Source of the DNA: an uncultured Spirochaetota bacterium
Lineage (GTDB): Bacteria; Spirochaetota; B62-G9; DRHN01
NCBI GenBank assembly: GCA_964460545.1
Contig: CAYWUT010000001.1
Location: 21,320-85,319 of the forward strand
Length of the DNA stretch: 64,000 nt
Direction of reading: 5' to 3'
In this document: piece after piece, positions 5,169-25,089 of the stretch
Layout of the letters: each line of letters begins with the position of its first letter
Position numbering within the stretch: position 1 is the first letter of the stretch
Notes under the pieces: model-generated
Databases searched by the model: none
The model's input: the letters and a program-made list of their open reading frames with translations, nothing else
Told to the model about the DNA's origin: nothing
Position numbers and translations under genes: made by a program

Positions 5169-6058
5169 TGGACGGCGGATCCCCTTCGGTCCCCTATGAC
5201 GTCGAGCGGGGGTGCGGGGATGAGATCGAGCATGGCGTTTCGCATCTCGACGGCGGTAACCGCGTTGCGCTGCAGGGCCGCGTTCACGCCGCCGTATATA
5301 TTCGCCCCGTAAGCCGTCACTCCGATCACGATGAAGAGCGCCGCGAGTACGGGAATACCGAGTACGACCGAGAGAACCGCCGCTCCGGCCAGTCCGCCGT
5401 TTATGAAAAAACTCCGAATCCCGTCCATGGTCCTGCCCGCATAGATATGACCCATTCCCGGGACGACCGAGAGGATCCCCGCAACGGCCGGATGTTTTTG
5501 ACTCGTCTCCGACGCCCGGATGAGCAGCACCTCCAGTTCCGGCACGAAACCGTCATTCATCCGCGCGTCTTCAATGAACTGCAGAGCACCCTCCCAGTCG
5601 AATTCTTCTATGAGCAGAGCGGTCCGCATCGCATCCATATATCCTCCGAGAACGGGGCCGGGCTCGGGGTATTCGGCGAAAAAACGATCGCGGGCCAGGA
5701 GAAAATCATTCGTATGCTTCTGTCTGAAAAAGATGTTTGCGATCTGAAAGAGGGACATCCTCCGTAAATCTTTATCATTACCGCTTTCATAAAGAAGCGT
5801 CTCGAGCTTCATGAGCCCGGAAACCGCCTCCCTGTATCTCCCCGATTGTACATCGGCCATCGCGCCGTAATACCGCGCGCGGTCGGCGAACCCGTGGTCC
5901 GGGTTCACATAAACGAAACGTTCGAATTCGACCGCAGCGGCTTCAAACCTCCCGGACCGGAAGAGAATGAGGGCGAATGACGGGTCGGTCTGGCCCAACG
6001 CCGTTATCCGGACGAGGAAGCAGAGGAGCGCGAGGGCAGTTGTCTTCCGGAGTATCAT
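5165..6058 (-). CDS. TPR-repeat protein with N-terminal signal peptide and C-terminal transmembrane segments
   Basis: N-terminal hydrophobic signal (ALALLCFLVRITALG), TPR-like AxxYY helical repeats, and a C-terminal stretch of hydrophobic helices (GLAGAAVLSVVLGIPVLAALFIVIGVTAYG). A 4-bp overlap joins it to yidD. Confidence 0.45.
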   Translation of the reverse strand: MILRKTTALALLCFLVRITALGQTDPSFALILFRSGRFEAAAVEFERFVYVNPDHGFADRARYYGAMADVQSGRYREAVSGLMKLETLLYESGNDKDLRRMSLFQIANIFFRQKHTNDFLLARDRFFAEYPEPGPVLGGYMDAMRTALLIEEFDWEGALQFIEDARMNDGFVPELEVLLIRASETSQKHPAVAGILSVVPGMGHIYAGRTMDGIRSFFINGGLAGAAVLSVVLGIPVLAALFIVIGVTAYGANIYGGVNAALQRNAVTAVEMRNAMLDLIPAPPLDVIGDRRGSAVQ

Positions 6059-6441
6059 CTGCAGTAATCAACCGGTCTGAAGATAAAATTATGATTGACG
6101 GGATCCCGGTATCTTCCGGTTCCCGGGTCCTCCTCGTAGTGTACGGTCGACCGGGCGTTCTCCCTGTAAAGCATCCGGTCCGCGGTCATGAGCACCGCCC
6201 AGAAAAGACCGTGCATACGGGCGGCTTCGGAAAAAAATTCGGAGCAGGTGGGATAAAACATACACCTTCCCCCGTCATGAACGGAGATACGATCCCTGTA
6301 AAATCGGACAAGGGGCTGCACCGGGAGGACGGTCCCCGTCGTTTCACCGTGTCCCAGAGCGTTCCTGCAGCTCTCGTCCGTCCAGCCGTAAACGGACGCA
6401 CAGGAAAACAGGAAAATGAACCCGAGCGCGAACAGCCTCAT
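6055..6441 (-). CDS. yidD: membrane protein insertion efficiency factor YidD (DUF37)
   Basis: Carries the family signature CRFYPTCSEY-like motif (GRCMFYPTCSEFFSEA). Start taken at MRLFALGFIFLF, a signal-like N-terminus. Confidence 0.6.
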   Translation of the reverse strand: MRLFALGFIFLFSCASVYGWTDESCRNALGHGETTGTVLPVQPLVRFYRDRISVHDGGRCMFYPTCSEFFSEAARMHGLFWAVLMTADRMLYRENARSTVHYEEDPGTGRYRDPVNHNFIFRPVDYCR

Positions 6442-6569
6442 ATCCGGTATGGTAGTATCCGCACCGGTAAAAATCAACAAACTTATTGAACACCGGCGCA
6501 CGGGAGCAGTATAATGCAGGTAACGGATATCAGGGACATCCACCGCACGTTCGAAAACGGAGTCTGAAC

Positions 6570-7196
6570 ATGGACAGGGACATGCTCTTTCAAAAATACG
6601 GACAGGTTGTTGAACCGGGACGGATCATATTCAAGGAAGGTGAGCCGGGAGAAACGATGTGCATCATACAGAAAGGCCGGGTAAAGATAACAAAACGCGT
6701 CGGCCAGATCGAGAAAATCCTCATGATTCTGAATAAGGGCGACTTCTTCGGTGAGATGGCCATCATTACCCAGACGCCGAGAACGGCTACCGCATCCGCG
6801 ATAGACACATGCGAGCTCCTGATGTTCAACCGCCAGGGTTTCACGAGCATGATAAGCAAGAACACGAATATTGCGATGAACATCATCGAAAAGCTCTGTC
6901 TGCGCCTCGAAAAGGCGGACAACCAGATACGCGACCTCGCGAAACGGGACATCAAGTCTCTCGTTATCAGCGCTCTCAATGATTTCAGGAAATCAACAAA
7001 AACCGGAGAAAGGGACACCGTCCTCTACGGTGAGTCCGTCAGGCACATCGCGGAACAGACCTCATCGACCGCGGAGGAGGTCGAAACCCAGTTAAAACGC
7101 CTCATCGAGTCAGGCCTCCTTTCAATGCATGAGAACACGCTTCACATCGTCAAACCGGGTGAACTCGACGTGCTTGCAGGGTACCTGGAGAAGTAG
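6570..7196 (+). CDS. cyclic-nucleotide-binding domain protein (Crp/Fnr-like regulator)
   Basis: cNMP-binding beta-roll motifs (IFKEGEPGETMCIIQKGRVKI ... GDFFGEMAI). Start taken at MDRDMLF (ATG 6570). Confidence 0.55.
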   Translation: MDRDMLFQKYGQVVEPGRIIFKEGEPGETMCIIQKGRVKITKRVGQIEKILMILNKGDFFGEMAIITQTPRTATASAIDTCELLMFNRQGFTSMISKNTNIAMNIIEKLCLRLEKADNQIRDLAKRDIKSLVISALNDFRKSTKTGERDTVLYGESVRHIAEQTSSTAEEVETQLKRLIESGLLSMHENTLHIVKPGELDVLAGYLEK

Positions 7197-7204
7197 GAAA
7201 CCTC

Positions 7205-7708
7205 ATGGACCGCTGCCTCATATGCCGGGAAATGAATGAGAGAGACCTCGATGATGTCATGCGCATCGAGAGGGCGGTTTTCAAGCGCCCCTGGACCGAG
7301 GAGTTCTTCAGGCTGATACTCTCGGATATGAACAATTATATCATTACGCTGAGAGATCGCGATCTCATCGGGTACGGCGGCTATCATCTCCTGAAAAACA
7401 GCTCGAATTTTCTTCATATACAAAAAACCTATCCGAGAATCATCCACCTCATCAGCATCGCCATCAACCCCGGCTTTCAGCACAGGGGTTTCGGCACCAT
7501 GCTCATGAATATGCTCATGAATGATGCGCTGTCGAAGAAAGCCGGATACTGCTACCTCGAAGTTCGTCCCTCGAACATGAGAGCACTCTCCTTCTACCAG
7601 TCCCGGTCCTTTTCCATTATCGGCTTCATAGAGAATTACTACGCGCAGGAGCACGAAAACGCCTATGTCATGGGGAAGGAGATTACTCCCAGGCTGAACC
7701 GGTTATAA
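7205..7708 (+). CDS. GNAT family N-acetyltransferase (RimI-like)
   Basis: GNAT acetyl-CoA motif (IAINPGFQHRGFGTMLM) and a RimI-like length of 167 aa. Confidence 0.6.
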   Translation: MDRCLICREMNERDLDDVMRIERAVFKRPWTEEFFRLILSDMNNYIITLRDRDLIGYGGYHLLKNSSNFLHIQKTYPRIIHLISIAINPGFQHRGFGTMLMNMLMNDALSKKAGYCYLEVRPSNMRALSFYQSRSFSIIGFIENYYAQEHENAYVMGKEITPRLNRL

Positions 7709-7911
7709 TCGGCCGCTTGAATTCGCCACCCCATTCACCGTTATACCCGTAATGACGCCTCGATCATTCAGCCCCGTTCGCGGGCGCGGCTGCGGGCGCG
7801 AATGGCGTCCAGTGAATTTCAACCTGTGTGGTATGAATGACGAGATGGAAGGTCCCCGCGGTCAAACCGGCCGGCGGTCATGGATCGCCGGCCGTCTTCA
7901 TGCGGATAAGC

Positions 7912-8958
7912 TCAGGCAACCGTGACCGTTTTATCGAGATACACGTCCTGTATGGTATTGAGGAGCTTGACACCCTCCTCCATGGGACGCTGGAAAGCCT
8001 TCCTGCCTGAGATGAGTCCCGTGCCGCCGGCACGTTTGTTGATAACTGCCGTCCGAACCGCCTGTGCGAAGTCGTTTTCTCCGGAAGCGCCGCCTGAATT
8101 GATCATACCTGCCCTGCCCATATAACAGCCCATGACCTGGTAACGTGTCAGGTCTATGGGATGGTCGGACGTGAGATCGGAATAGATAAGCTTATGGGTC
8201 TTGCCGAACTTGAGGGCATTGAATCCCCCGTTGCACTCCGCCTGTTTCTGCTTGACGATATCGGCCTCGATGGTGGCGCCGAGATGGTTCGCCTGGTTCG
8301 AAAGATCGGAAGCGAGGTGATAATCCGTCCCCTCGTGCTTGAAAGCATTGTTTCTCAAATAGGCCCAGAGAACGGTAAACATTCCGAGACTGTGCGCATA
8401 CTCGAACGCCTCGGTGATCTCGACGATCTGCCTGCTCGATTCCTCGGAGCCGAAGTAGACCGTGGCGCCGACGGCAACAGCACCCATGTTGAATGCCTGG
8501 TCCACGCTCGCGAAGAGAACCTGGTCGAACTTGTTCGGATAGGTCAGAAGCTCGTTGTGATTGATCTTCACGATAAACGGAATCTTAAACGCGTATTTCC
8601 GCGCCACTGAACCGAGCACCCCCAGTGTCGAGGCGACCGCATTGCATCCCCCCTCAACCGCGAGCTTTACGATGTTTTCAGGATCAAAATAGATCGGATT
8701 CGGTGCGAATGCGCTGCCGGCCGAATGTTCGATACCCTGGTCAACGGGCAGTATAGAGAGATACCCGGTTCCTGCCAGACGACCGTGGCTGAATACGGTC
8801 TGCATATTTCTCAGTACATTGGCCGACCTGTCCGTGTGGACCATAACACGCTCTATGAAATCCGGTCCCGGAAGGTGCAGTAAATCCTTCGATACCATGC
8901 ACTTGTGTTCGAGTAGGTTTTTAGCTTCATCTCCAAGTAGTTGTGAAACTGAACTCAT
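7912..8958 (-). CDS. fbaB: class I fructose-bisphosphate aldolase (DhnA/FbaB type)
   Basis: Near full-length colinear similarity to E. coli FbaB (QLLG..A.NLL.H.CM ... LRNMQT...[22 protein letters not shown] ... [16 protein letters not shown] ... [16 protein letters not shown]) and the same ~348 aa length. Confidence 0.9.
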
Positions 8959-9051
8959 TTCCTCCTCCTCGGCGAGTATTTTTTTACAATATACTAATAA
9001 TTGTCCTGAAAAACAGAAATTGTTTGTAAAACATCATGTCCGGCCGCTTTT

Positions 9052-10179
9052 TTATCTCCATCTCTTTCGAAGCGGATGAAGTTTCAGCGTTTCCTGTACC
9101 AGATCCGCGATTCCTGCGGCGCCGTTTCTCTCTGCGAGCCGGGAAGCGCTGCACCCCATGGAACGGAGAGTCTTTTCGTCCGAAAGCAGCCGGGTAACGG
9201 CCTCGAAGAGTGATTCTCCGCACAGGTCGTCATCCTGCATGACGACCGCACCGCCGTTTTCCTTAAAAAAGGCGGCGTTGCGCACCTGCTCGCCCCTGCT
9301 CTTGGAACGGGGAAGAGGAACGAGGATTGCAGGTTTTCCCGCACACGCTATTTCAAAGAGAGCACCGGCACCCGCCCTGCTTACGACGATATCGGAAGCA
9401 GCGAGGACATCCCCGATCTCCGCGCCGATAAAGGGAAAACACCGGTACTGCCGCCCGCAAGGCTGCCGCCCGTAAGGCTGTCGCCCGTAAGGCTGCCGCC
9501 CGCCGTCCCCGCACTGATGCACGATGAAGAAGGGAAGATCGCGGCGCGACACCATTTCCCGAACCGCGCTGTTCAGCGATTCGGCGCCGAGACTCCCCCC
9601 GAGTACGGTAACCACCGGCTGACCGGGCTGCACCCCGATAAAACTCCTCCCGCGCAGCGCATCTCCCTCCAGAATGAGCTTGCGCACGGGATTTCCCGTA
9701 TACACGGTTTTTACGTTTCCCAGGCGCTCCGCCGTCTGCGGAAACGAAACACACACCGCTTCCGCAAACCGTGCGATAATGCGGTTTGCAAGTCCGGGAT
9801 CGATATCGCTCTCGTGCGTGATTACCGGTATTCGGAGGAAAGTGGCCGCAAGAACGGGCGGAACGGCGACGAACCCCCCTTTTGAGAAGAGCAGCGAGGG
9901 CCTCTCTCTGCGAAGAATGATGAAGGATTGGACGACCCCGATGATGACGTTGAAGAAATCGGAAAAATTCTTCAGCGAAAAATACCGCCTCAGCTTTCCC
10001 GTTCTGACGGGATGAAAGGGAATGGAGAGCTCCCCGGAGCGTGCTTCCTCAGGTCCGCCTTTCTTCCCGATCCAGAAAAATGCACCGAACCCCCTTCTCC
10101 GCAGCTCGTCCAGGACCGCAATAATCGGATAGATATGCCCCCCGGTTCCTCCGCCCGTTACACCGATCTTGATTTCCAC
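9052..10179 (-). CDS. murG: GT28 UDP-GlcNAc transferase, MurG-like
   Basis: N-terminal G-loop GVTGGGTGGHIYP and overall MurG-like architecture. Carries an internal GRQPY x3 insertion encoded by a 15-bp tandem repeat. The gene stands alone, not in a dcw cluster. Confidence 0.55.
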   Translation of the reverse strand: MEIKIGVTGGGTGGHIYPIIAVLDELRRRGFGAFFWIGKKGGPEEARSGELSIPFHPVRTGKLRRYFSLKNFSDFFNVIIGVVQSFIILRRERPSLLFSKGGFVAVPPVLAATFLRIPVITHESDIDPGLANRIIARFAEAVCVSFPQTAERLGNVKTVYTGNPVRKLILEGDALRGRSFIGVQPGQPVVTVLGGSLGAESLNSAVREMVSRRDLPFFIVHQCGDGGRQPYGRQPYGRQPCGRQYRCFPFIGAEIGDVLAASDIVVSRAGAGALFEIACAGKPAILVPLPRSKSRGEQVRNAAFFKENGGAVVMQDDDLCGESLFEAVTRLLSDEKTLRSMGCSASRLAERNGAAGIADLVQETLKLHPLRKRWR

Positions 10180-10331
10180 GACTCTCCCCCGTGCCGGATT
10201 CTCCTGAGAACGGGCCTGCCGGTCCGCACCGCTTCTCCAAATATATCCCGTACATCCGCTATGTCCATTAAAAGAGATTCATTTTCATTTCCCGGGTTTC
10301 ATGGTACACTGAAAAAAAAGCGGAGTTTGCA

Positions 10332-10814
10332 ATGGAACTGAAATCCGTATCGGTTGAAATTCCGGAGGGTGCGAACGTCATTATCGGACAATCGCATTTC
10401 ATTAAAACCGTGGAGGATATATACGAAGCCGTTATCAATACCGCTCCTTCAATACAATTCGGACTGGCATTCAACGAGGCTTCGGGAGTCTGTCTCGTTC
10501 GAAAAGACGGCAACGATGAGGAGCTCATCCGGCACGCGGTGGACACCGCGCTGAATATCGGCGCGGGCCATATATTCGTTCTTTTCATGAAAGAAGGGTT
10601 CCCCATCCAGGTGCTGCCGGCGGTTCGAAACGTCCGCGAGGTGGTCGGTATATTCTGTGCGACCGCGAATCCCCTCGAGATCATCGTGGCTGAAACCGGG
10701 GGCGGAAGGGGAATCATCGGCGTGGTAGACGGTTCTGCTCCCAGGGGTGTTGAAAAAGAAGACGATAGAAAAGCGAGAATCGATTTATTGAGGAAATTCG
10801 GGTATAAACGCTGA
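10332..10814 (+). CDS. adenosine-specific kinase family (PF04008-like) small protein
   Basis: 160 aa. The N-terminal pattern V.IP.GANVI.GQSHFIKTVED..EA resembles the adenosine-specific kinase family. Assigned from memory of the family only. Confidence 0.35.
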   Translation: MELKSVSVEIPEGANVIIGQSHFIKTVEDIYEAVINTAPSIQFGLAFNEASGVCLVRKDGNDEELIRHAVDTALNIGAGHIFVLFMKEGFPIQVLPAVRNVREVVGIFCATANPLEIIVAETGGGRGIIGVVDGSAPRGVEKEDDRKARIDLLRKFGYKR

Positions 10815-10932
10815 GAGGGAAGCGTCCGTAATCGCATGAATAATTCTGTTTACATGCCCGTCCGGACGCATATAATAAAGGGATATGCGGAAGCCGGGTT
10901 TCGTCCGGAGCCCGGTATGAAAGGAGGGAGCC

Positions 10933-11118
10933 GTGTCTCATCTTCTGGGACAGGTCTTGATGGAATCGGGTATGATAACCATAGATGAGCTGAACGAAGC
11001 GCTGGAGATACAGAAATCCTCCGGACAGAGGCTCGGTGACATTCTCATCAACCTTAATATGATCACGCCTGAAGAGCTGCAAATGGCTCTTGAATTTCAG
11101 GAAGATGCAACTGAGTAG
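10933..11118 (+). CDS. stand-alone MshEN / T2SE_Nter domain protein (61 aa), putative c-di-GMP receptor
   Basis: Strong RBS AAGGAGGGAG 3 bp before the GTG start. Two tandem copies of the 24-residue MshEN motif RLGxxLLxxGLLxxxxLxxxLxxQ (LLGQVLMESGMITIDELNEALEIQ and RLGDILINLNMITPEELQMALEFQ). Confidence 0.6.
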   Translation: MSHLLGQVLMESGMITIDELNEALEIQKSSGQRLGDILINLNMITPEELQMALEFQEDATE

Positions 11119-11143
11119 GTGGTTTGGTGTCCGACCCGGTCCG

Positions 11144-12733
11144 TCAGAGGTAGACCTCTTCACTGCCTATGTTGAGCATCTTGACGATCTTGTTCTTGGC
11201 CTCGAGATAGCTGAGGAAAGCGATGATCTCATCCGGTGTCGTACACTTGAGAAGCCATTCGAAATGCTCCATACGGGCGAATATCTTTGACAGCGAATCG
11301 ACAATTCGATCATAGATCTCACCGAGATACTCGGGCGCGAGAAACGCGAACGCGATGTAAAACCGATCGCTGCCCGGACTCATTTCCACGCCGTCAGGCG
11401 AAAGCCCGATAATGGGCACAATATCATCCACGAAATCCCCGAATGCGTGAAACAGGGCGATGTTCCTTCCGATGGGGGTATGCACGATAATTCCGGTCTG
11501 CATGAGCTCCGCTTCCGCTTTTTCAGGGTTGAGCATCCGTCCCTTCCCCGTCTGTATGATCTCCCTGATGATTTCTTCCCGCTTTACGCCCCTGAGCCTC
11601 GGAATAACGAGATCTTTATGAAACATAAGTGACGCCGTGTAGGGAAGCGGATCGGGCGTGTCTCCTCCCGCATCCGTTTCCGTCTGTTCCAGCATGCGCC
11701 GTTGCGCCCTGTACTCGGGTATCTTGATCATGGGCGGGCGCTCGATACCCCATACTTTCATCTTTTCTATGGAATAGACGTCCCTCACGCCCGTCAAAAC
11801 CTGGAGGGAATCGGTGATGTCCTGAAATATCTCTATCCTCCCCATGTCGTCCGCCCTCTGGAGAAGTATCTTCAGAATCCGGTAGGACATGGACCGGAGT
11901 GATTCGATACTCTGGTTCTTGTGTATGCGAACGTCGAGATCGCACTGGCCCATGATATCGAGACTATAGAGCCGGTTGATATCGATGAGATGGCCCGTTT
12001 CAACTCCGTACCCGGTAAAGAAGGGCAGCTTCTCGAGCAGGTCCCTCCGCCCGGCGTATTCACCGGAGAGCGGCTGGGCGAAACCCGTAAGCTCGGGGAA
12101 GAGAAGATTGAAGAAAGGCCTGACCACCAGTTCCGTAACCCTTCCCCCGCCCGTGTAGTGAATCTCTCCGTGTATCTGAATCGGGCGTTTGTAAAAGGCC
12201 TTTACGTATGAGAGGTGCGGATAGAGAAGAAGCGGTCCGACAAGGCCATAGACGAAACGAGGATGTATATTCGTGATATCCGCGTCAATCCAGCATATAA
12301 TGTCTCCCTTGAGCACATAGAGGCTCTTCCAGAGGTTCTCACCCTTTCCCCTGTACACCCTGTGCTGAGGGAGGATATCCGATGAGTAGTAGAAATCCGC
12401 ACCCGCGCTCCTTGCGACCTCCTCGGTCCTGTCCGTTGATCCCGAATCGATGACCGCTATCTCGTCGAGGAGCGGGTGCTTCTCCGCGAGCTCGCGCCGC
12501 ATGAGCTCGATCTCTTTTCCGACGGTCTTTTCCTCGTTCAGCGTCGGAAAACAGAGGCTTATGCTCAATCCGAGCTCATTCTTTTTTTCAATGAGGCTTT
12601 CGACATCCTTGAACCGCGAGTGATGGAAGGTGTTCCGCTCTATCCATTCCTTTATGTACGAGGGCTTGTCGAGGTCACGGGTAAGGGCCTCCTGTACCTC
12701 GTTCGGACTCTCTTTCTTGTATAATTCCGCCAT
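11144..12733 (-). CDS. gpgS: glucosyl-3-phosphoglycerate synthase (GT81) fused to C-terminal PTS EIIA type-2 (PtsN-like) domain
   Basis: The N-terminal ~330 aa align with mycobacterial GpgS (PTLNEE.TVG ... IAVIDSGSTD.TE ... GKGE.LW.SL...GDI..(W/F)IDADI.N.HP.FV.GLVGPLL). The C-terminal ~150 aa have EIIA-2 hallmarks (PIGRNIALFHA ~ GxAIPH; FYIAFAFLAPE). Confidence 0.7.
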   Translation of the reverse strand: MAELYKKESPNEVQEALTRDLDKPSYIKEWIERNTFHHSRFKDVESLIEKKNELGLSISLCFPTLNEEKTVGKEIELMRRELAEKHPLLDEIAVIDSGSTDRTEEVARSAGADFYYSSDILPQHRVYRGKGENLWKSLYVLKGDIICWIDADITNIHPRFVYGLVGPLLLYPHLSYVKAFYKRPIQIHGEIHYTGGGRVTELVVRPFFNLLFPELTGFAQPLSGEYAGRRDLLEKLPFFTGYGVETGHLIDINRLYSLDIMGQCDLDVRIHKNQSIESLRSMSYRILKILLQRADDMGRIEIFQDITDSLQVLTGVRDVYSIEKMKVWGIERPPMIKIPEYRAQRRMLEQTETDAGGDTPDPLPYTASLMFHKDLVIPRLRGVKREEIIREIIQTGKGRMLNPEKAEAELMQTGIIVHTPIGRNIALFHAFGDFVDDIVPIIGLSPDGVEMSPGSDRFYIAFAFLAPEYLGEIYDRIVDSLSKIFARMEHFEWLLKCTTPDEIIAFLSYLEAKNKIVKMLNIGSEEVYL

Positions 12734-13016
12734 CTTAGCCCCTATCCCGATATTAATTTAATAACATATATTTACACTTTCATCAATAGAAATAGACAGA
12801 CGCGTATACACGCCGGGAACGGTTATGTACGGAATAAAGGTCACTTTCAGCCCCGTTTCTTCATTAATAATTGAAAAATCGGACCGCTTTTTACCTTATA
12901 TACAGTATAATGAGGCGAATGGGGCGATCGAGTTTCAAGAAATAGGTAAAAGAGGGAGATTACACAAAAAATCCCTCAATTCACCCTTTTTTAAGGGTGC
13001 CGGGAAGGAAGGTGAA

Positions 13017-14714
13017 ATGTCAAGTACCGATTATGACCGTATGAAAGAACGGCTCAATAAACTGTACGGCGGGCGGAAGGGCAAAACAACGTATGAAAAA
13101 CTTATACGGATAATCGAACGATACGAGCCGGAGCTCACGCAGCAAACCGGGAGGCTCTCGGAAAAGGACGTCGTGATCATCACCTACGGGGACGCGTTCC
13201 GGAAAGAGGGCACGGCACATCTCCGGACACTTCACGGATTCCTCAAGGACCATCTGCACGACATGGTGAGCATCGTTCATATTCTGCCCTTCTTTCCCTA
13301 CTCCTCGGACGACGGATTCTCGGTAATAGACTATAAGAAGGTCGACCCGAAGCTCGGCTCATGGGACGACATCGGGTTCCTGGAAAAGGACTTCAAGCTC
13401 ATGTTCGACGCCGTCATCAACCATATATCCGTCAAGAGCGAACCGTTTATGGGGTTCCTCGCCGGGGATCCCAGGTACCAAGGCTTCTTCATAGAGCCCG
13501 GTCCCGAATACGATATCTCATCGGTATTCAGGCCCAGGGCCCTTCCCCTTATTACCCGCTATAATACCGACGAGGGAGAGGTCGGCCTGTGGACCACCTT
13601 CAGCGTTGACCAGGCGGACCTGAACTACGAGAATCCCGAGGTCCTCCTCTACATCATCGACGTCCTCCTCTTCTACGCTTCAAAGGGCGCATCTATCATA
13701 CGTCTCGATGCCATCGCGTTTCTCTGGAAGACGAGCGGTACCTCGTGCCTCCACCTTCCACGGACCCATGAGGTCATCAAGCTCTTCAGGAACGTCATGA
13801 ATGCGGCCGCACCGCAACTCAAGATCATTACGGAGACGAACGTACCGCACAGGGACAACGTCGCATACTTCGGATCCGGCAGGGACGAGGCGCATATGGT
13901 CTACAATTTCGCTCTGCCGCCGCTCGCGGCGCACGCGCTCATAACCGGAAACGGCTCCTACCTGACGTCATGGGCCGCGAAGCTCGAAACCCCGGGGGGA
14001 AACACGGCCTTTTATAATTTTACCGCTTCCCATGACGGCGTCGGGCTCATGCCCGTAAAGAACATCCTCCCACCCGAGGAGATTTCGGTCCTCGAGAACG
14101 CCGCTGTCCGTCACGGGGGGCTGACGGGCCTGAAAAACAATCCCGACGGCACGAAGAGCGTTTACGAGCTGAATATATCCTACTTCGACCTGCTCTCCGA
14201 TCCCGCTGGACAAGAGGACACCCGCCAGCAGGCATCCCGTTTCATCGCTTCACAGGGTATCGCACTGACGCTCCGGGGAGTACCGGCCCTCTATTACCAC
14301 TCCTTCATCGGTTCGAGAAACGACCTTGACGGGGTGGAAAGAACCGGAACAAATAGGTCGATCAACAGGGAGAAGCTCGATGTCCAGGAGGTCGAAGAAG
14401 GCTTGCGGGACCCCGGCTCTCTCCGTTCACTCGTTTATGACGGTTTGAAAAAGCTCACCCGGGCGAGGAGCAGCCGCGACGCGTTCAGTCCGTATGGAGG
14501 CCAGGAGGTACTGAACATATCAAATGAGATCTTCGCGGTTCTGCGGACCTCACCCGACGGCCTGAATAAAATTCTATCGTACATCAATGTCTCGAACAGT
14601 GAGGTTTTCGTCAAGCCGCCCGCAGCCGGGATGCGCGATATCATAACCGGCAGGCGTTTCGGTGAGGAGATCGGGGTGAAGCCGTACGAGGTGCTCTGGC
14701 TCGAGGAAAAATGA
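13017..14714 (+). CDS. GH13_18 sucrose-phosphorylase-family enzyme (likely glucosylglycerate phosphorylase)
   Basis: Sucrose-phosphorylase-like motifs (ITYGDAF, ILPFFPYSSDDGFSVIDY, DAVINH, IIRLDAIAFLWK). Start taken at MSSTDYD with an upstream GGAAGGAAGG RBS; the ORF track begins earlier at 12825. Product inferred from context: divergent from gpgS. Confidence 0.65.
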   Translation: MSSTDYDRMKERLNKLYGGRKGKTTYEKLIRIIERYEPELTQQTGRLSEKDVVIITYGDAFRKEGTAHLRTLHGFLKDHLHDMVSIVHILPFFPYSSDDGFSVIDYKKVDPKLGSWDDIGFLEKDFKLMFDAVINHISVKSEPFMGFLAGDPRYQGFFIEPGPEYDISSVFRPRALPLITRYNTDEGEVGLWTTFSVDQADLNYENPEVLLYIIDVLLFYASKGASIIRLDAIAFLWKTSGTSCLHLPRTHEVIKLFRNVMNAAAPQLKIITETNVPHRDNVAYFGSGRDEAHMVYNFALPPLAAHALITGNGSYLTSWAAKLETPGGNTAFYNFTASHDGVGLMPVKNILPPEEISVLENAAVRHGGLTGLKNNPDGTKSVYELNISYFDLLSDPAGQEDTRQQASRFIASQGIALTLRGVPALYYHSFIGSRNDLDGVERTGTNRSINREKLDVQEVEEGLRDPGSLRSLVYDGLKKLTRARSSRDAFSPYGGQEVLNISNEIFAVLRTSPDGLNKILSYINVSNSEVFVKPPAAGMRDIITGRRFGEEIGVKPYEVLWLEEK

Positions 14715-14724
14715 CCGCCTGAGG

Positions 14725-16053
14725 CTATTCGCTCCTGGGATCCATGGATTCGACGATTCCCTCGAAATTGATAAGGAGGCTCTTGAGCTTTCTCTTGAGT
14801 ACTTCGTAGGAAAAATACTTTGCCGCGAGCCTGTAGTTCTTCTCCGCCCGTTCCCTGTGCGAATTCCCGTCCCGGAGCACCGCTTTAATTTTACTTATCA
14901 CCTCGTCCGTTACATAGCCCTCCATCTCGATGACCTCGAAACCGAGGGGCTTTATGTCCGTGAGGTATGCCGAGTACCGGTTTACCAGTATGGCCTTCTT
15001 GAAGTAGATGGCCTCTATGAAGGCATTCCCGAATCCTTCGTAGGTGGAGGGATAGGTGATGAGGTCGGCGTGCGGATAAATGTCCCAGAGAGTGTACACC
15101 TTTTCTCCCCGCTCGTTTCTCCCACGCCGGTCGCCGATGATTTCGGGTTTTAATATGATGGAAACCCCGAGGTGCTCCGCATAACTCAGGATACGCTTCT
15201 CATAGGCATCACCCTCGTCTCCCACGGAATGGGTAATGACGAGCTTCGCCCTCGGATCACCTATCCTGGATACGGCCTCTATGGTGTGCTCGATCCCCTT
15301 CCTGGCCACGACCCGGGTGGGCTGCAGTATAAAGTAATCGTCCTTTCCTATACCGAACGCCTTCCGTACATCCGCATTGTAGTGGTTGATTCCCGGAGGC
15401 TCCTTACTGAAATCGAGTACATTCGGGATAACCACGGGCGAAAGCCCCGTTCTGTAGCTCAGCTGGCGGTCGGCTTCGGACTGGATCACCACGTGCTGTA
15501 TGGAATGAAGAGAGGGCGGAAAGGCCGTGCTCAGTATGTCCGCCACGGCGTTGACGTAGAAACGGGGCCGCTCCCAGTAGAAATCGTGATGATGCGCTAT
15601 CGTCGGAATCCCGGTCTCCGCTATGAGCTCGGTCAGCGCGAGCCCGAGCGGAATGTTCATCGGTATGGCGAGGCAATTTTCCGCTATGATGAGATGTATC
15701 TCGAACTTATCGAGAAACCGGTAGAGGGCGTCCTTCAGCATCCGCCTGAGCCGGTGTATTTTACCGGTGAGCTCCGAAGTCCTCCTGTACACCTTGAAGC
15801 ACTGGTCATTGATCTGCAGTATGCTCTTGTGGCCGAAGAAAGCCTCGGGTACGATCATGGTCTTTGCCGGGTCCCGGTCGCTGACCCCGGCAAAATAGAA
15901 CTTCCTGTACCCCATTCCCCTGAGCACGGCGGCCCACTTTTCCGTTTCGAGCGAAACACCGTCCGTCCCCGCGAAGCGCGTTGAAACGAATCCGATATTC
16001 TTGATTTGCCTGTAACCGTTGTACCTGCCCTTTTTCTGGTTAGCCGCTGCCAT
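14725..16053 (-). CDS. GT4-family (GT-B) glycosyltransferase
   Basis: GT4-like C-terminal nucleotide-sugar binding region (YPSTYEGFGNAFIEAIYFKKAILV). Sits inside the compatible-solute locus; may catalyse a second glycosyl transfer. Confidence 0.5.
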   Translation of the reverse strand: MAAANQKKGRYNGYRQIKNIGFVSTRFAGTDGVSLETEKWAAVLRGMGYRKFYFAGVSDRDPAKTMIVPEAFFGHKSILQINDQCFKVYRRTSELTGKIHRLRRMLKDALYRFLDKFEIHLIIAENCLAIPMNIPLGLALTELIAETGIPTIAHHHDFYWERPRFYVNAVADILSTAFPPSLHSIQHVVIQSEADRQLSYRTGLSPVVIPNVLDFSKEPPGINHYNADVRKAFGIGKDDYFILQPTRVVARKGIEHTIEAVSRIGDPRAKLVITHSVGDEGDAYEKRILSYAEHLGVSIILKPEIIGDRRGRNERGEKVYTLWDIYPHADLITYPSTYEGFGNAFIEAIYFKKAILVNRYSAYLTDIKPLGFEVIEMEGYVTDEVISKIKAVLRDGNSHRERAEKNYRLAAKYFSYEVLKRKLKSLLINFEGIVESMDPRSE

Positions 16054-16271
16054 AACCCCCCCGTATTCGCTCGCGGACGATAATCGGTTTCACCTCATCC
16101 CCTTAAGTCCCGTCACCCTGTACTTTTTGGCATTATCTATTAAAATCCGGTATATTTTATCAGAATTCACGAAAGAAGATAATTATTTTTTTATACGGCC
16201 TTTTAAGCGTTGATGCTTTACGGAAAGAACCGTATGGTACGTCTTGATTTCGAAATTTTACGCGCTTCATT

Positions 16272-17108
16272 TTATTTTACGCTATTAATATGTTCGGTTA
16301 TTTCCGGAAGCTTTAAAACCGTAATATCGGGCCGCACCCCCCCGCACCGTTCGTCTTCCTTCCTGAGGCGCAGCGACCGTGCGTCGCCCGCAAACAGGGC
16401 GGTTTGAAAACCGGCCGCTGCAGCCGGCGCGATATCATTCAGCATGTCGTTTCCCACGTAGAGCACGTTGCCGGCGTCTATCCCCCTCACCGCACAGGCC
16501 CTTCGGGCCCTTTCAAAGAACAGGGAGGACGGCTTCGCACGGGCCTGCTCGAAGGAGTAGAACGAAAGGTCCCGGCATATCCCGATATCCCCGGGTTTCC
16601 CGAGGAAATAGTAAAAGAGCAGGGGTGTGTAGAACTGGGCGTTCGATATAACACCCAGAGGCAGGTCTCCCGCCGCGAGGTCCGTGAAGAGACCGCGGAG
16701 TCCGGGCATGGGCCAAGCCGGGTTTACCGTCCACTCGTACTCGAGTGCAAACCGTTTCACGCGGCCCGGGCCGAGATCCAGCACCCGCATCCACACCTCG
16801 TCAATGTTCACCTCGGGGAAATCGATGCCTTTCAGGCGGTCGACTTCATGCATCTCCTCTATGACGCTGAAATAGGACGAGAGAACACTCCCGGGATCGC
16901 GGCGGATTCCGTACGCGGAGAGCAGGGGGGCGAGCGCGGCCGCTCCGTAATCCCGGCGTGCCGTAGAGATATCACCGGAGCCGCTGATGAAGAGCGTGCC
17001 GTAAATATCGAAAAACACCGCGCGTACCGTGCGGCCGAGCGAACCGCTGCTCCGCAGTTCCGTGGCGAGGGGCTGCATGGGAGTCGCGTATTTTTCGATT
17101 ATGGACAT
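16272..17108 (-). CDS. HAD-superfamily hydrolase (candidate sugar-phosphoglycerate phosphatase)
   Basis: HAD motif I FFDIYGTLF and motif IV YVGNDMLNDI. Start taken at MSIIEKY; the track ORF begins 30 nt earlier. Confidence 0.5.
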   Translation of the reverse strand: MSIIEKYATPMQPLATELRSSGSLGRTVRAVFFDIYGTLFISGSGDISTARRDYGAAALAPLLSAYGIRRDPGSVLSSYFSVIEEMHEVDRLKGIDFPEVNIDEVWMRVLDLGPGRVKRFALEYEWTVNPAWPMPGLRGLFTDLAAGDLPLGVISNAQFYTPLLFYYFLGKPGDIGICRDLSFYSFEQARAKPSSLFFERARRACAVRGIDAGNVLYVGNDMLNDIAPAAAAGFQTALFAGDARSLRLRKEDERCGGVRPDITVLKLPEITEHINSVK

Positions 17109-17118
17109 AAATTTATTC

Positions 17119-18534
17119 TTATGCATAGGATTTTTCACAGAGAAGCAGCTGGTTATGCTCGGGCTTGTTGAACGCCCTCAGTAGTACGGATTTATCGATC
17201 CGGTGTACGGGCGACCCTTCAAGCACTTTTCCGTATATTCCCATCATCCGGGCCCCGTTTTTCTCCAGCGAATACGCGTCTTCTATTATTGTACTGTTCC
17301 GCTCGATCCGTTCCTCATCGATCATCGTATCTCCGGAAACCGGGAGAAAGGGATTGTATTCCTCAAGACGCTTCCGCGCGGACGGCTCCTTAAGACACCG
17401 GACGATCACCCCGCTCTGCAGGTCCTCGCTCAGCGCACCGAAATCGACCCAGCCGCGCGTTCTTATGGAGTCCAGGTAGCCGTCCTCCTCTTCCCGGCGG
17501 ACCTCCAGGCCGTACCGTTCCGCTTTAAGCCGATGGCACGCGCGCCACTTCATCTCGAAGAGGCTGTAATCGACCATATCGAGGGGAATACGGAGCGCGG
17601 TGTAGAGTTGATCGAAGACGATTCCACGGTCGGTAAAATCCCCGCATACATCCGGAAGCAGCCGCCCGAAGAGCTGTCTTTTCCCTGTCCACGGCTCCAA
17701 AAAGGTGAGGCCGAAACCCTCCTTGATACTCGTGGTGATCACGAAGCGGGACCTGCCGAGTATGACGGACAAGTCCGTATCCGTGCCGAGCCCGAAGAGC
17801 ACCGGAAGGCCGTACCGTGAAACGAAACTCCGCCACTCCTCGTAGCTCTGTACATCGAGCATACCCGTCGGCTCAAGGGTCAGGCCGACCGCATCGCCCT
17901 TTTGTATGAAGAGCGAGAGAAGCACCGCCTCTCCCACGTTCTTTCTCCGTATCGCCCTTACCGGGTAAAGCACGATATCCCTGTTTCCATTCCGGGCCCG
18001 AAGAGGCCTGACCGCGTTCGGAAGGAGATGAAGCCCCTCATCCTTTAAACCCGCTTCCCTCAGTATTTTATAATCACGTGAATTGATAACCGCGTAGTGG
18101 CAATCGGAGGGGTACTCTTCGGCCGTATAGTTGTCGGGCCTGCCGTCTTCCGCGAAATCATGAATCTGGAGCAGGACCCGCTCACCGCGGGAGCGTAAAA
18201 TCCGGACCATACGCACGAACTCTTTATTCTTGCCCAGCGTCGGATTGTGTATGTGCAGTATGTCCGCTCCCTCTTTCCACACCGAGCCGATCGAACGCTG
18301 AACATCATCGGCCATCCGTTCCGGGTCGCATCCTTCCCTCCTGTCACGGTCATACCTGAGAGAGGAAACGACCCTGAAGGGCAAGCGAAGATCCTCGTCG
18401 GACGGAGGAGGGGATTCCCCGGTCAGGATGAGCGGCCTGAATCCGGCAAGGCCGGCGGCGGATGCGATCTGGTCCTCAATTACGCGGGTAACGCCTCCCC
18501 GCCGCATATGGTGATGGATAAACGCTACTTTCAT
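17119..18534 (-). CDS. GT-B glycosyltransferase (GT4-like), second copy in locus
   Basis: 471-aa ORF with a GT-B C-terminal motif (SIKEGFGLTFLEPW). Confidence 0.45.
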   Translation of the reverse strand: MKVAFIHHHMRRGGVTRVIEDQIASAAGLAGFRPLILTGESPPPSDEDLRLPFRVVSSLRYDRDRREGCDPERMADDVQRSIGSVWKEGADILHIHNPTLGKNKEFVRMVRILRSRGERVLLQIHDFAEDGRPDNYTAEEYPSDCHYAVINSRDYKILREAGLKDEGLHLLPNAVRPLRARNGNRDIVLYPVRAIRRKNVGEAVLLSLFIQKGDAVGLTLEPTGMLDVQSYEEWRSFVSRYGLPVLFGLGTDTDLSVILGRSRFVITTSIKEGFGLTFLEPWTGKRQLFGRLLPDVCGDFTDRGIVFDQLYTALRIPLDMVDYSLFEMKWRACHRLKAERYGLEVRREEEDGYLDSIRTRGWVDFGALSEDLQSGVIVRCLKEPSARKRLEEYNPFLPVSGDTMIDEERIERNSTIIEDAYSLEKNGARMMGIYGKVLEGSPVHRIDKSVLLRAFNKPEHNQLLLCEKSYA

Positions 18535-18551: not shown

Positions 18552-19658
18552 TCAGAGCTCCGTAAAGGGAATGTCGATCCGCTTTCCGCCCGCCATCGCC
18601 GATTCATGGGCTGCTATTCCGGCCATGGTCCAGTTGGCCGCCGTATCCGCATCGATCGCGGATTTTCGCCCTTCCCTGATGGCGCTCAGGAATTCATGAA
18701 CGAGATGGGGATGGGACCCCCCGTGTCCGGACCCCTGTATGAACGAGGTGGATTCCTCGTCGACCACCTCCCCCATGGTAAAGGGGGCTATTTCCTTGGG
18801 AAGTATACCGGCAAAATCAGGTACATCCACCCGCTCCGCATCCTCAAATCCTGAAAAACGTACCATGCCCTCGCCCGCCACCTGCTCCCACTCGTAGGAC
18901 AGCTTTGTCCCGTAAACGTCGAAACTCTCCCTGTACTGTCTGATCGTATCGAAGAGCGACCTCGTTACCTCTATTGTCAGGTTGCTCTCCCTGAGCTTCA
19001 TGGTGGCCGTTTCAACGGCAAAGGGAGAGTTGTACCGGGCGCGGTACTCCTCCCGTATCCTGCCTGAGCCGTGACACACCACATATTCAGCCGCGCCGCC
19101 TGAAAGTTTCAAAAGGGGACTCACCGCATGGGTGGCGTACAGCATGGGCGGATATCCGTACCAGTACTCGGGCCATCCGGGAAGGCTCATGTTCTGCTGA
19201 TGCGAACCGCGCATGAACTGTATCGCGCCGATATTTCCAGAATTATACTGCTCCTGGACGTAGAGAAACTCCCGTGTGTACACGGCTGTTTCCATCATCA
19301 TATACACCCGGCCGGACGCCTTCCGCGCCTCCGCGATACCCATGCACTCATCAGCGGTGAATCCCATGGGTACGGTGCACGCCGTGTGCTTACCCGCTTT
19401 GAGTGAAGCGATTGACATGGGGGCATGGTCGGCAATACCCGTTACGATGTGAATTGCGTCGATTTCCTCCACCTCGAGGAGATCCTCGAAACGGGTGAAC
19501 CGCCGTTCCACGCCCAGCTGGTCGCCTATCTCGTCGAGATGCTTCCTGTTGCGCCGGCATATGGCATAGCATTCGGAATACGGATGCTTCTGGTAAATAG
19601 GTACGAACTCGGCTCCGAATCCGAGACCGACCACCCCGACCCTTATTTTATCCGCCAT
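18552..19658 (-). CDS. Gfo/Idh/MocA family NAD(P)-dependent oxidoreductase
   Basis: N-terminal Rossmann fold IRVGVVGLGFGAEFVP and the typical family length of 368 aa. Confidence 0.6.
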   Translation of the reverse strand: MADKIRVGVVGLGFGAEFVPIYQKHPYSECYAICRRNRKHLDEIGDQLGVERRFTRFEDLLEVEEIDAIHIVTGIADHAPMSIASLKAGKHTACTVPMGFTADECMGIAEARKASGRVYMMMETAVYTREFLYVQEQYNSGNIGAIQFMRGSHQQNMSLPGWPEYWYGYPPMLYATHAVSPLLKLSGGAAEYVVCHGSGRIREEYRARYNSPFAVETATMKLRESNLTIEVTRSLFDTIRQYRESFDVYGTKLSYEWEQVAGEGMVRFSGFEDAERVDVPDFAGILPKEIAPFTMGEVVDEESTSFIQGSGHGGSHPHLVHEFLSAIREGRKSAIDADTAANWTMAGIAAHESAMAGGKRIDIPFTEL

Positions 19659-19834: not shown

Positions 19835-20638
19835 TCAGGCTACGCCGTTTTCTTCGGGATCTTCCAGCACCTTCTTGAGGTCCTGAAGAAACCGCGCGCC
19901 CGTTGCGCCGTCCACCGCCTTGTGGTCGCATGAGACCGTCATTTTCATGCGATAACCCGCCTGGATGGAGCCGTCCTTCACGACCGGGACTTCCTTGATC
20001 GCACCCACGGCGAGTATGAGGGCCTGCGGGGGATTCACAATCGCGGCAAAGTGCTCTATTCCGAACATGCCGAGGTTTGAAACGGTAAAGGTCCCGCCCA
20101 TCCCCTCTCGCGGCCTGAGCTTCATGTTTCGAGCCTTCTCGATGAGAATGAGCGATTCCTCCTGCAGCTGCTCGAGGTTCTTCGACTCGCAGTTCCTCAC
20201 CGTGGGAACGAGCAGGCCGCCTTCGACCGCCACGGCAATACCTATATTAATCTCTTCAAAATAGAGCATTTTTCCATCGTCATACGATGCGTTGCACTCC
20301 GGATGGTTCTGCAGTGTAACGGCGCATGCCTTGACAATGATGTCGTTGAAGCTGAACGTGCGCTCACGCCCCTCATTCAGCTTCTTCCTGTACTGCATGG
20401 CCCGCTCCATCTCGACTTCAATGGTCATATAGATATGGGGGTTCTCGAGCTTGCTCTGCACCATTCTCTTTGCAATGACCTTCCTCAGCGACGAAGCCGC
20501 TTCTTCCCTGTACTGTACGTCACTCATACTCACTGTCCTCCGAGTATCCATGGCATTTCGGAAATAATACCCCGCGGGCTCTTTAAAAGTAAAGAACCTT
20601 TTGCTCCGCCGGGAACGCCGAACCGCCGTGATAGACAT
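19835..20638 (-). CDS. 2-oxoacid dehydrogenase acyltransferase (E2) catalytic-domain protein, no lipoyl domain
   Basis: Catalytic motif SCDHKAVDGATGARFL (DHRxxDG). No lipoyl or E1/E3-binding domains. The true start may be the internal MSDVQY (~20530). Confidence 0.55.
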   Translation of the reverse strand: MSITAVRRSRRSKRFFTFKEPAGYYFRNAMDTRRTVSMSDVQYREEAASSLRKVIAKRMVQSKLENPHIYMTIEVEMERAMQYRKKLNEGRERTFSFNDIIVKACAVTLQNHPECNASYDDGKMLYFEEINIGIAVAVEGGLLVPTVRNCESKNLEQLQEESLILIEKARNMKLRPREGMGGTFTVSNLGMFGIEHFAAIVNPPQALILAVGAIKEVPVVKDGSIQAGYRMKMTVSCDHKAVDGATGARFLQDLKKVLEDPEENGVA

Positions 20639-20913: not shown

Positions 20914-21705
20914 ATGACGAAAAGCGAGTTTCAGAAAAAGGTCATAGAGCTCCTCAAGAAATATCGTATCAACAGGAGGATGAAGGAGAGTATTTTCCCC
21001 CTCTTCTCACTGGCCGATAATCTATCTCAGGAGGAGATGGTCAACGTCTACAACCTCCTCAAAGAGGCGATTGTAGCCCAGAAGGAGGCGGAAAAACTCT
21101 CCACGAGGCTGAATGCGCTTTTCCTTGATTTCAACACCACGATCAAGGACGTTTCGGACGACCTGAGTGATATCAGGAAGAAGCTTAATGATCTGCGCGA
21201 ATCGGAAGCTCAGACGGGGGCCAGACCGGCGGGGAGAGAAATACGGATTAAACACGGAAATACGATGAAATTCAACAAACAGTCGTTTCCAGGAGAGAAA
21301 CCGAATTTCGGTCTCAAGCTGAACAAGCTTTTCGCCGCCTTTATAACCGAATACGGCCCGGACCATATAACGCTCGTAGTCAGCGACTCGATTCTCTATA
21401 CCAACAATCTCATCCTGAGGATCTCACTCCGGACAAAAGAGGTACTCATCGGTTCCAGCAAATCCATGAAGCTCTACGAATCCTCGAACGGAGAAAGCTT
21501 CCTCGTCACCGACAAGCCCGAGGTCATTCCCCGGGGAAGCAGAAAGGGATTTTACTTCAAGAACATCACCTACGAGGATATCCTGAATCTTACCAACGGG
21601 GATTTCTTCAAGGTATTCGACGAGAACATACTCAAGACGTACCGTGAGTATGAAACCGACCTTCCGAGCGAGCTGGAACAGGTGGGCTACTTCGAATTCG
21701 AGTAA
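20914..21705 (+). CDS. hypothetical protein (lower-GC region)
   Basis: 263-aa ORF lying in an AT-richer stretch with no antisense competitor. No recognisable motif. Confidence 0.4.
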   Translation: MTKSEFQKKVIELLKKYRINRRMKESIFPLFSLADNLSQEEMVNVYNLLKEAIVAQKEAEKLSTRLNALFLDFNTTIKDVSDDLSDIRKKLNDLRESEAQTGARPAGREIRIKHGNTMKFNKQSFPGEKPNFGLKLNKLFAAFITEYGPDHITLVVSDSILYTNNLILRISLRTKEVLIGSSKSMKLYESSNGESFLVTDKPEVIPRGSRKGFYFKNITYEDILNLTNGDFFKVFDENILKTYREYETDLPSELEQVGYFEFE

Positions 21706-25063: not shown

Positions 25064-25089
25064 GAGGTACAGGCCTCAGGAACATGGTA

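Follow-up and report, generated by a model that had tools for sequence, protein, structure and literature searches.

A conserved Spirochaetota gene cluster predicted to serve glucosylglycerate and mannosylglucosylglycerate metabolism, with a PtsN-type domain fused to its GpgS

A stretch of 64,000 nucleotides of contig CAYWUT010000001.1 (assembly GCA_964460545.1), from an uncultured Spirochaetota bacterium and hereafter called the window, contains a 7.4-kb block of five genes. They encode a putative glucosyl-3-phosphoglycerate synthase fused to an enzyme IIA domain (gpgS::EIIA), a GH13_18 phosphorylase, a GT4 glycosyltransferase of 442 residues (GT4_442), a HAD hydrolase and a second GT-B glycosyltransferase of 471 residues (GT_471). 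The locus is likely to be a conserved Spirochaetota cluster for glucosylglycerate (GG) and, most probably, mannosylglucosylglycerate (MGG), whose first step is proposed to be under the control of the PtsN-type EIIA domain.

All five genes lie in the order and on the strands given in the initial annotation, which had been made by a model from the nucleotide letters alone. Independent gene calls on two near-identical metagenome contigs, found through the protein P0001 (JGI 3300030616 and the 248-kb ENA ERZ27252234), returned the same set with proteins of 471, 284, 442, 565, 529 and 61 aa, the last being a small open reading frame (ORF) discussed below; an exact-sequence look-up of the window GpgS::EIIA gave no record. 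Two gene boundaries were corrected. The phosphorylase, listed from 12825, starts in fact at the ATG at 13017: a Shine-Dalgarno sequence (AAGGAAGGTG) lies just upstream, and the alignment with its homologue YcjM begins there. The HAD gene starts at the ATG at 17126 and overlaps by 8 nt the stop of the upstream GT_471 gene, so that the two are predicted to be translationally coupled.

The 283-bp AT-rich intergenic region between the divergent gpgS::EIIA and phosphorylase genes has a single conserved part in the alignment with two related spirochaete loci (L002 and L006), namely a promoter-like stretch that is likely to be the sigma-70 promoter of gpgS::EIIA (Table 1). It should be noted that consensus promoter and terminator scans of the locus gave counts no higher than expected from shuffled sequence and missed this promoter. 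A sigma-54 promoter upstream of gpgS or of the phosphorylase was also considered and rejected, the matches being no commoner than in shuffled sequence and none of them intergenic. Between the HAD and GT4_442 genes, which share a strand, there is a non-coding gap of 218 bp (16054-16271), whose equivalent measures 33-213 bp in related spirochaete loci; it has no Rfam family match and may hold an internal promoter. A riboswitch or other regulatory RNA at the locus was likewise discarded as a candidate, a scan of the whole window at Rfam gathering thresholds having returned only a signal recognition particle (SRP) RNA and two tRNAs. The flanking genes are of the housekeeping type (murG, an adenosine-kinase-like gene, a class I aldolase gene, recR, dnaX and valS).

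Table 1. Features of the locus and RNA genes of the window (positions counted from the first nucleotide of the window).
Feature	Positions	Strand	Length	Remarks
Small conserved ORF	10933-11118	+	61 aa	converges on the 3' end of gpgS::EIIA
gpgS::EIIA	11144-12733	-	529 aa	
PtsN-like EIIA domain	11210-11626	-		putative phospho-acceptor His429 at 11447-11449, motif NIALFHAF
Likely sigma-70 promoter of gpgS::EIIA	12758-12786	-		-35 TTGATG, 17-nt spacer, extended -10 TGT-TATTAA
GH13_18 phosphorylase (putative glucosylglycerate phosphorylase, GGaP)	13017-14714	+	565 aa	
TETN acid/base motif	13830-13841	+		phosphorylase; IITETNVPH
Loop-A YELN	14163-14174	+		phosphorylase; SVYELN
MggS-like GT4 (GT4_442)	14725-16053	-	442 aa	
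HAD hydrolase, MggB-type	16272-17126	-	284 aa	
HAD motif I, DIYGT	16986-17009	-		nucleophile D44
Second GT-B, MggA-type (GT_471)	17119-18534	-	471 aa	
Gfo/Idh/MocA oxidoreductase	18552-19658	-	368 aa	Pfam GFO_IDH_MocA
Bacterial small SRP RNA	24950-25048	-		Rfam
tRNA-Ser(GGA)	25089-25178	-		Rfam
tRNA-Leu(CAA)	59486-59569	-		Rfam

Conservation of the block was examined starting from 582 relatives of the HAD protein in species-representative genomes, collected with a HAD profile and the pattern FD[IVL]YGTLF. Eighty loci, mostly from metagenome-assembled genomes (MAGs), were kept and surveyed by tblastn with all the window proteins, the loci of D. oleivorans and of a Bythopirellula MAG serving as proxies for those of Rhodopirellula baltica, T. 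caldarium and C. akajimensis. The best HAD identity among the species representatives, which do not include the organism of the window, was 50%. The whole block is syntenic in the Spirochaetota MAG loci L002, L005 and L029, and likewise in L006 up to the contig edge, with the order GT_471, HAD, GT4_442, GH13 (on the opposite strand), gpgS::EIIA, adenosine-kinase-like gene and murG, and with amino-acid identities of 47-80% across these four loci.

Sub-modules of the block recur in Planctomycetota, SAR324 and Desulfobacterota. GT_471 is directly upstream of the HAD gene in about 65 of the 80 loci, mostly from Desulfobacterota, and most loci of that phylum contain this pair only. Every locus with a homologue of the GH13_18 enzyme also has a homologue of GT4_442, and the loci with both are found in Spirochaetota, in a Bythopirellula planctomycete (L057), in SAR324 (L066) and in a deltaproteobacterium (L075). 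The planctomycete locus (8439-13996) has a row of MggA-like, HAD (45% identity), GT4_442-like (51%) and GGaP-like (42%) genes, with the phosphorylase co-directional and within the row; in SAR324 (5474-10822) the phosphorylase is again co-directional and lies 21 nt upstream of the mggA-mggB pair, while in the deltaproteobacterium (363-9230) two MggS-like GT4 paralogues flank it. The five-gene arrangement is therefore more than a product of chance.

In the protein encoded by gpgS::EIIA, a GT81 domain (aa ~27-340) is joined through a disordered linker (aa ~350-364) to an EIIA domain of the PtsN type (aa ~370-520); an AlphaFold2 model of the fusion showed two folded domains with the linker 350-364 disordered, and was not informative about the docking of the domains. 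Both halves of the identity initially proposed for this gene were borne out. The synthase part scored 367.7 bits with NCBIfam NF010496, above the equivalog cut-off of 262 and with positions 5-306 of the 307 of the model matched, and the C-terminal ~160 residues matched Pfam PTS_EIIA_2 (PF00359) with 36.3 bits against a gathering threshold of 27. In addition, the GT81 domain matched the PDB structures of mycobacterial GpgS and of Rubrobacter MpgS/GpgS enzymes (E=1e-57 to 1e-65), and D150 and D152 of its GT-A acidic motif (WIDADI) are invariant in 20 homologues. Transfer of glucose rather than mannose would be favoured, because the gene is linked to a putative GG-specific phosphorylase.

The EIIA profile had PtsN proteins as its best PDB matches (2a0j, 4e-22; 1a6j, 1e-21), against 9e-13 for mannitol EIIA, and hhalign with E. 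coli PtsN (probability 98.9%) aligned His429 to the histidine of GIAIPH, the active-site residue (His73) of PtsN. In an alignment of 20 fusion proteins, His429 and an upstream Thr are invariant. Over 100 protein clusters, spread over several phyla, contain fusions of this kind, the named sources being Spirochaetota (including Salinispira pacifica and Sediminispirochaeta), Candidatus Eisenbacteria and Calditrichota, and the top database matches were nearly all fusions of 500-540 aa. They split into two clades (68-75% identical versus 40-46% identical), the more distant of which has the canonical loop G-x-G-[IV]-A-[IV]-P-H. The window domain resembles PtsN in its fold profile and in the conserved phospho-histidine, but PtsN is made as a separate protein of ~160 aa and acts in trans, whereas the window domain is fused to its presumed target and its clade has a divergent active-site loop.

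The nitrogen-related phosphotransferase system (PTS-Ntr), to which PtsN (EIIA-Ntr) belongs, senses glutamine and 2-oxoglutarate and, through direct contact, controls metabolic enzymes as well as K+ homeostasis (PMC13104625). In R. baltica, the MGG content has been reported to rise 25-fold on nitrogen depletion, and a role in replacing glutamate as K+ counter-ion has been proposed. The fusion suggests a direct nitrogen/K+-PTS control of an anionic solute that is known to rise under nitrogen limitation. Specifically, the PtsN-type domain might be a working phospho-switch, by which an HPr/NPr relay responding to glutamine/2-oxoglutarate and K+ would gate the first committed step of GG/MGG synthesis; we regard this as possible but doubtful. 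In the literature searched, no paper links GpgS or GG with EIIA or PtsN, and the words 'fused' and 'fusion' are absent from a 2026 review of PTS-Ntr.

The domain could instead be a PTS-fold module that has degenerated and now has a role in oligomerisation, ligand binding or stabilisation, with a GpgS not wired to the PTS at all, and this is a substantial possibility, if not one that we would call probable. Several observations point this way and against a phospho-switch. In the window clade the canonical G-x-A-I-P-H context is gone, the motif reading NIALFH instead of GVAIPH, and a single-sequence search yields only remote PtsN relatives; indeed, the window domain searched alone found only six representative clusters below 1e-10, and because close relatives are so few, the clade is considered divergent. 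There are no PTS phosphocarrier genes in the window, PTS genes do not adjoin three other fused gpgS genes (from Eisenbacteria, Calditrichota and another spirochaete), and genes for HPr, EI or HprK are absent from the vicinity of every fused gpgS examined. The EIIA profile also had weak matches outside the PTS, to cytoplasmic domains of anion exchangers, and other non-phosphorylated EIIA-fold domains exist. However, a degenerate module would not readily account for a His and an upstream Thr that are invariant over two deeply diverged clades (40% identity) and at least four phyla, nor for closest structural relatives that are true PtsN proteins (~1e-22), and Salinispira pacifica, which carries the fusion, encodes both HPr and Enzyme I.

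A different osmolyte context for the same gpgS-EIIA fusion is found on the Candidatus Eiseniibacteriota chromosome CP070702 (locus L084, 8001-11471). There, the fused gpgS is followed by a gene for a 419-aa protein with a weak mannosylglycerate-synthase-type glycosyltransferase domain (PF21969), and then by a gene for a small protein with a faint mechanosensitive-channel match.

GT_471 gave no Pfam, NCBIfam or PDB sequence match, and its family has more than 2,200 matches, mostly from Spirochaetota and Desulfobacterota. An AlphaFold2 model built with 32 homologues (predicted local distance difference test, pLDDT, 90; predicted template modelling score, pTM, 0.89) had retaining GT4 enzymes of GT-B fold as its top Foldseek matches (GlgM, BshA, sucrose-phosphate synthase, MshA and a mycobacterial mannosyltransferase), and E272 and E280 of the EX7E motif are invariant. 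The HAD protein matched the Pfam families Hydrolase and Hydrolase_like, and its D44, S165 (motif II), K202 (motif III) and D231/D235 (motif IV) are invariant. The two proteins are naturally fused in P0110, a 798-aa protein from a JGI metagenome with an MggA-type glycosyltransferase and an MggB-type HAD, a counterpart of the fusions of synthase and phosphatase known from other pathways for compatible solutes. In Desulfosudis (formerly Desulfococcus) oleivorans (L052), homologues of GT_471 (39%) and of the HAD protein (45%) are consecutive.

These features can be compared with the published description of the MGG pathway of R. baltica, in which MggA is a GT4 enzyme and MggB a novel type of HAD (Cunha et al., 2013; PMC3736172). 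According to the same authors, R. baltica MggB (RB12347) has its best homologues in Spirochaeta (32-39% identity), Spirochaetaceae also carry MggA homologues, the genes mggA and mggB directly follow one another in Desulfococcus oleovorans and Spirochaeta caldaria, and R. baltica itself has an operon-like mggS-like/mggB/SPase unit, a description that the gene row of the Bythopirellula locus matches. Because the adjacency of GT_471 and HAD, the D. oleivorans pair and the P0110 fusion all fit these descriptions, we infer that GT_471 belongs to the MggA family and the HAD protein to the Rhodopirellula-type MggB family. The glycosyltransferase and hydrolase that had been proposed as partners in a solute pathway thus appear to be the pair known as MggA-MggB in the MGG literature rather than members of unrelated families.

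The phosphorylase has only the alpha-amylase catalytic domain as Pfam match, and is 45% identical to E. coli YcjM over its full length (559 aa; E=2e-172), which is annotated and published as a strict glucosylglycerate phosphorylase. Its score with the sucrose phosphorylase model TIGR03852 was 208 bits, below the cut-off of 334. The signatures of GGaP are (T/S)ETN at the acid/base residue and a Glu in place of the usual Gln after the Tyr of loop A (Franceus and Desmet, PMC7178133). Both are present in the window enzyme, whose loop A (SVYELN) is to be compared with SPYEIN in YcjM and DIYQVN in the sucrose-phosphorylase-type structure 7qqi, and whose acid/base region (IITETNVPH) is unlike the ILPEIHEHY of 7qqi; both are also present in all seven cluster-linked homologues, from four phyla. 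The enzyme, which the initial annotation had assigned to the sucrose phosphorylase family with a possible specificity for GG, therefore has glucosylglycerate signatures rather than those of sucrose phosphorylases, and is predicted to be a glucosylglycerate phosphorylase (EC 2.4.1.352). Its length of ~560 aa and its association with gpgS are also shared with the characterized GGaPs (YcjM and those of Spirochaeta thermophila and Meiothermus silvanus; Franceus et al., 2017, reviewed in PMC7178133), but the window enzyme has an MggS-like GT4 as its regular partner, which is not discussed in the reviews of GGaP that were consulted.

GT4_442 contains the EX7E motif, and its best NCBIfam family is MggS (NF041101), matched over the full length with E=3e-67, the next family being at 3e-10. 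The score, however, was 227 bits against an equivalog cut-off of 640, and for this reason the protein is filed as MggS-like rather than as MggS. The same was observed for eight of eight relatives from four phyla, all with MggS as first match and all below the cut-off, which places GT4_442 in a sister clade of MggS and not within MggS. The proposal that two GT4 enzymes at the locus point to a di-glycosylated product such as MGG is therefore upheld as far as the closest family of GT4_442 is concerned, but not by membership in the MggS equivalog. That the two GT4s might be recent paralogues was also considered and rejected, as only the EX7E region is common to both.

As a secondary possibility, the MggS-like GT4 may be something other than a Leloir synthase, namely the enzyme that handles MGG in a GG shunt. 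It could, for instance, be a GT4 phosphorylase that sets mannose-1-phosphate free, in the way that GT4 trehalose phosphorylases release glucose-1-phosphate (Glc1P). This would explain why the R. baltica homologue had no MggS activity, either as recombinant protein or in cell extracts (PMC3736172).

Taken together, the family assignments of this analysis lead to a model in which the activities are inferred. The GT81 domain of GpgS::EIIA would transfer glucose from a nucleoside diphosphate glucose (NDP-glucose) to 3-phosphoglycerate, yielding glucosyl-3-phosphoglycerate (GPG); GT_471, as a member of the MggA family, would add mannose from GDP-mannose, yielding mannosylglucosyl-3-phosphoglycerate (MGPG), and the coupled HAD of the MggB family would dephosphorylate MGPG to MGG. 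The GH13_18 enzyme would interconvert GG and inorganic phosphate with alpha-glucose-1-phosphate and D-glycerate. Together with it, GT4_442 probably forms a shunt at the level of GG, since the pairing of the two genes suggests GG as their common intermediate: run in one direction, the shunt would lead from Glc1P and glycerate to GG and on to MGG independently of NDP-glucose, and in the other it would be an entry point for recycling. Finally, the EIIA domain would switch the first committed step according to the state of the HPr/NPr phosphorelay, i.e. to nitrogen/carbon and K+ status.

The initial annotation had explained the presence of a synthase and a phosphorylase in one locus by accumulation of the solute under stress and its recycling on relief. 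This fits poorly with the co-directional, operon-like phosphorylase of the planctomycete and SAR324 loci, where its placement argues for co-expression with synthesis. Both directions may be possible, and the route from Glc1P, which would spare nucleotide sugars, is favoured at least as much as recycling on relief.

Some points weigh against the pathway as drawn. In the PDB, the GT81 domain is matched best by a Rubrobacter enzyme that bears the name mannosyl-3-phosphoglycerate synthase (3f1y). Motif I of the HAD protein (DIYGT) has an invariant Tyr at Asp+2, atypical for a phosphatase; an Asp is usual at this position in HAD phosphatases, while Tyr is typical of 2-haloacid dehalogenases. R. baltica MggB, the only characterised member of its family, has a very low specific activity (0.013 U/mg), and the catalytic chemistry or the true substrate of the MggB-type HAD may differ from that assumed. 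The link of GT_471 and the HAD protein to the R. baltica or Petrotoga proteins is indirect, through the published descriptions of homologues. The window contains no genes for a GPG phosphatase, a glycerate kinase or GDP-mannose supply, and because a GPG phosphatase is missing from it, the de novo route would yield free GG only if the HAD were promiscuous or an unlinked enzyme took part. To these must be added the low MggS score of GT4_442 and the inactivity of its R. baltica homologue mentioned above, and the fact that sequence does not reveal which sugar a GT4 enzyme transfers.

The last three points are also what would favour a different GG-derived product, such as glucosylglucosylglycerate, a tri-saccharide glycerate or a GG-primed oligosaccharide, in which the GT4 enzymes would transfer a hexose other than mannose; a GG-primed oligosaccharide would be comparable to the primer of mycobacterial methylglucose lipopolysaccharide. 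Additional functions have in fact been suggested for MggB homologues (Cunha et al., PMC3736172). We nevertheless consider such a product unlikely, because the sole characterised members of the MggA and MggB families act on MGPG or its precursors, and because no other curated family comes near MggS in similarity to GT4_442.

A mainly catabolic island, for uptake and degradation of environmental GG or MGG as is thought for the E. coli ycj cluster, is a very unlikely alternative to a biosynthetic one. It is true that GGaP is the only known sink for GG and is also found in E. coli and other organisms without GG synthesis (PMC7178133), and that a Gfo/Idh/MocA gene adjoins the cluster, as it does in the ycj operon. 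However, the cluster has neither a transporter nor a hydrolase, it has three Leloir glycosyltransferases and a GpgS above the equivalog cut-off, and its neighbouring oxidoreductase shares no more than the Rossmann fold with YcjS and does not accompany the cluster in the related loci. Still less credible is that the glycosyltransferases serve cell-envelope glycoconjugates and lie beside gpgS and the phosphorylase by accident: murG is 1 kb away, JGI labels homologues 'glycosyltransferase involved in cell wall biosynthesis' and there are weak NCBIfam matches to GT4 families of lipopolysaccharide and exopolysaccharide synthesis, but the GT_471-HAD and GT4_442-GGaP adjacencies are conserved across phyla, a GT-HAD fusion protein exists, and none of the cluster proteins shows membrane or export features.

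With a biosynthetic GG/MGG cluster as the preferred reading, the two genes that had been taken to bound it deserve separate comment. Both are present. The Gfo/Idh/MocA gene lies 18 nt upstream of GT_471 on the same strand and is absent from all 80 related loci; as a candidate analogue of E. coli YcjS it was rejected, the identity being 19% and confined to the Rossmann domain. It probably has no function in the cluster. The 61-aa ORF is found in the same position, with 76-79% identity, in L002 and L005, and its membership of the solute system is uncertain.

The same ORF had been read as an MshEN mini-protein and hence as a possible control point for cyclic di-GMP (c-di-GMP). It has two 24-residue MshEN-like motifs with a 5-residue spacer, in which an Arg is replaced by Leu (motif 1) and a Gly by Asn (motif 2). 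The canonical motif, reportedly defined by Wang et al. in 2016, is RLGxx(L/I/V)(L/I/V)xxG..., in two 24-residue copies with a 5-residue spacer. The ORF had no Pfam match at E<=0.01, MshEN (PF05157) included, and it aligns to aa 13-75 of the T2SSE/MshE-type ATPase encoded in the window itself (E=2e-5). An enrichment of the canonical motif near mggA-mggB loci was looked for and not found, with one strict match in 1.18 Mb and no association, and Rfam detected no c-di-GMP riboswitch in the window. The replaced Arg and Gly are key residues of the motif, and a c-di-GMP link to the solute cluster through this ORF is weak, possible but unsupported.

Elsewhere in the window there is a set of genes resembling those of type II secretion and type IV pili, together with signalling genes (33388-39668, plus strand; 49952-50689, 40533-41960 and 46723-49020, minus strand). 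The set includes a secretin, a T2SSE ATPase with a Pfam MshEN domain, a T2SSF protein and a prepilin peptidase, and, on the signalling side, a REC-GAF-GGDEF diguanylate cyclase and a PAS histidine kinase with a receiver domain. These genes indicate that the organism has c-di-GMP signalling.

Other features of the window include, at 19835-20638 on the minus strand, a 2-oxoacid dehydrogenase E2 acyltransferase reduced to the catalytic domain (an ORF of 267 aa, 230 aa on the sister contigs), without lipoyl or subunit-binding domains and with no E1 or E3 genes nearby. Five ORFs of 263-504 aa belong to no Pfam family: 25281-26795, 43321-44310, 45066-46115 and 49043-49909 on the minus strand and 20914-21705 on the plus strand, the first and the last of which are called as genes on the sister contigs too.

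Among known systems, the closest is the MGG pathway of R. baltica (GpgS RB1005, MggA RB5546 and MggB RB12347; PMC3736172), which has five protein families in common with the window. There, however, the genes are distributed over three sites, including the mggS-like/mggB/spasE unit, whereas in the window they form a single block; in addition, the window GpgS has a C-terminal PtsN-type domain, and the GH13_18 enzyme of R. baltica reportedly cleaves sucrose, but strict GGaP signatures are found in that of the window. Petrotoga mobilis combines a three-step phosphorylating route (GpgS-MggA-MggB) with a non-phosphorylating one (GgS and MggS; PMC3736172), and the window may likewise combine a three-step phosphorylating route with a GG/MggS-type non-phosphorylating one. 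The differences are that Petrotoga MggB is unrelated to the HAD family of the window, that GT4_442 falls outside the MggS equivalog, and that the window has no GgS, in place of which GGaP could supply GG.

The island is a new and unusually complete member of a known pathway, described between 2010 and 2017. It is not new in kind, because the families, the logic of the pathway and its presence in spirochaetes were published in 2013, when Spirochaeta species were listed as carriers of GpgS, MggA and MggB homologues (PMC3736172), and the specificity of the phosphorylase, including that of Spirochaeta thermophila, in 2017. Two elements appear to go beyond the literature searched, namely the widely distributed fusion of GpgS with a PtsN-type domain that has a conserved His, and the GT4_442-GGaP pairing.

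GG and MGG are anionic solutes free of nitrogen, which under nitrogen scarcity take the place of glutamate as the counter-ion of K+, and the GpgS-PtsN architecture is a candidate for a direct link between the nitrogen-related PTS and osmolyte synthesis. The pairing of GT4_442 with GGaP in four phyla points to a second route between Glc1P/glycerate and MGG, and offers a concrete candidate role for the R. baltica enzyme that showed no activity.

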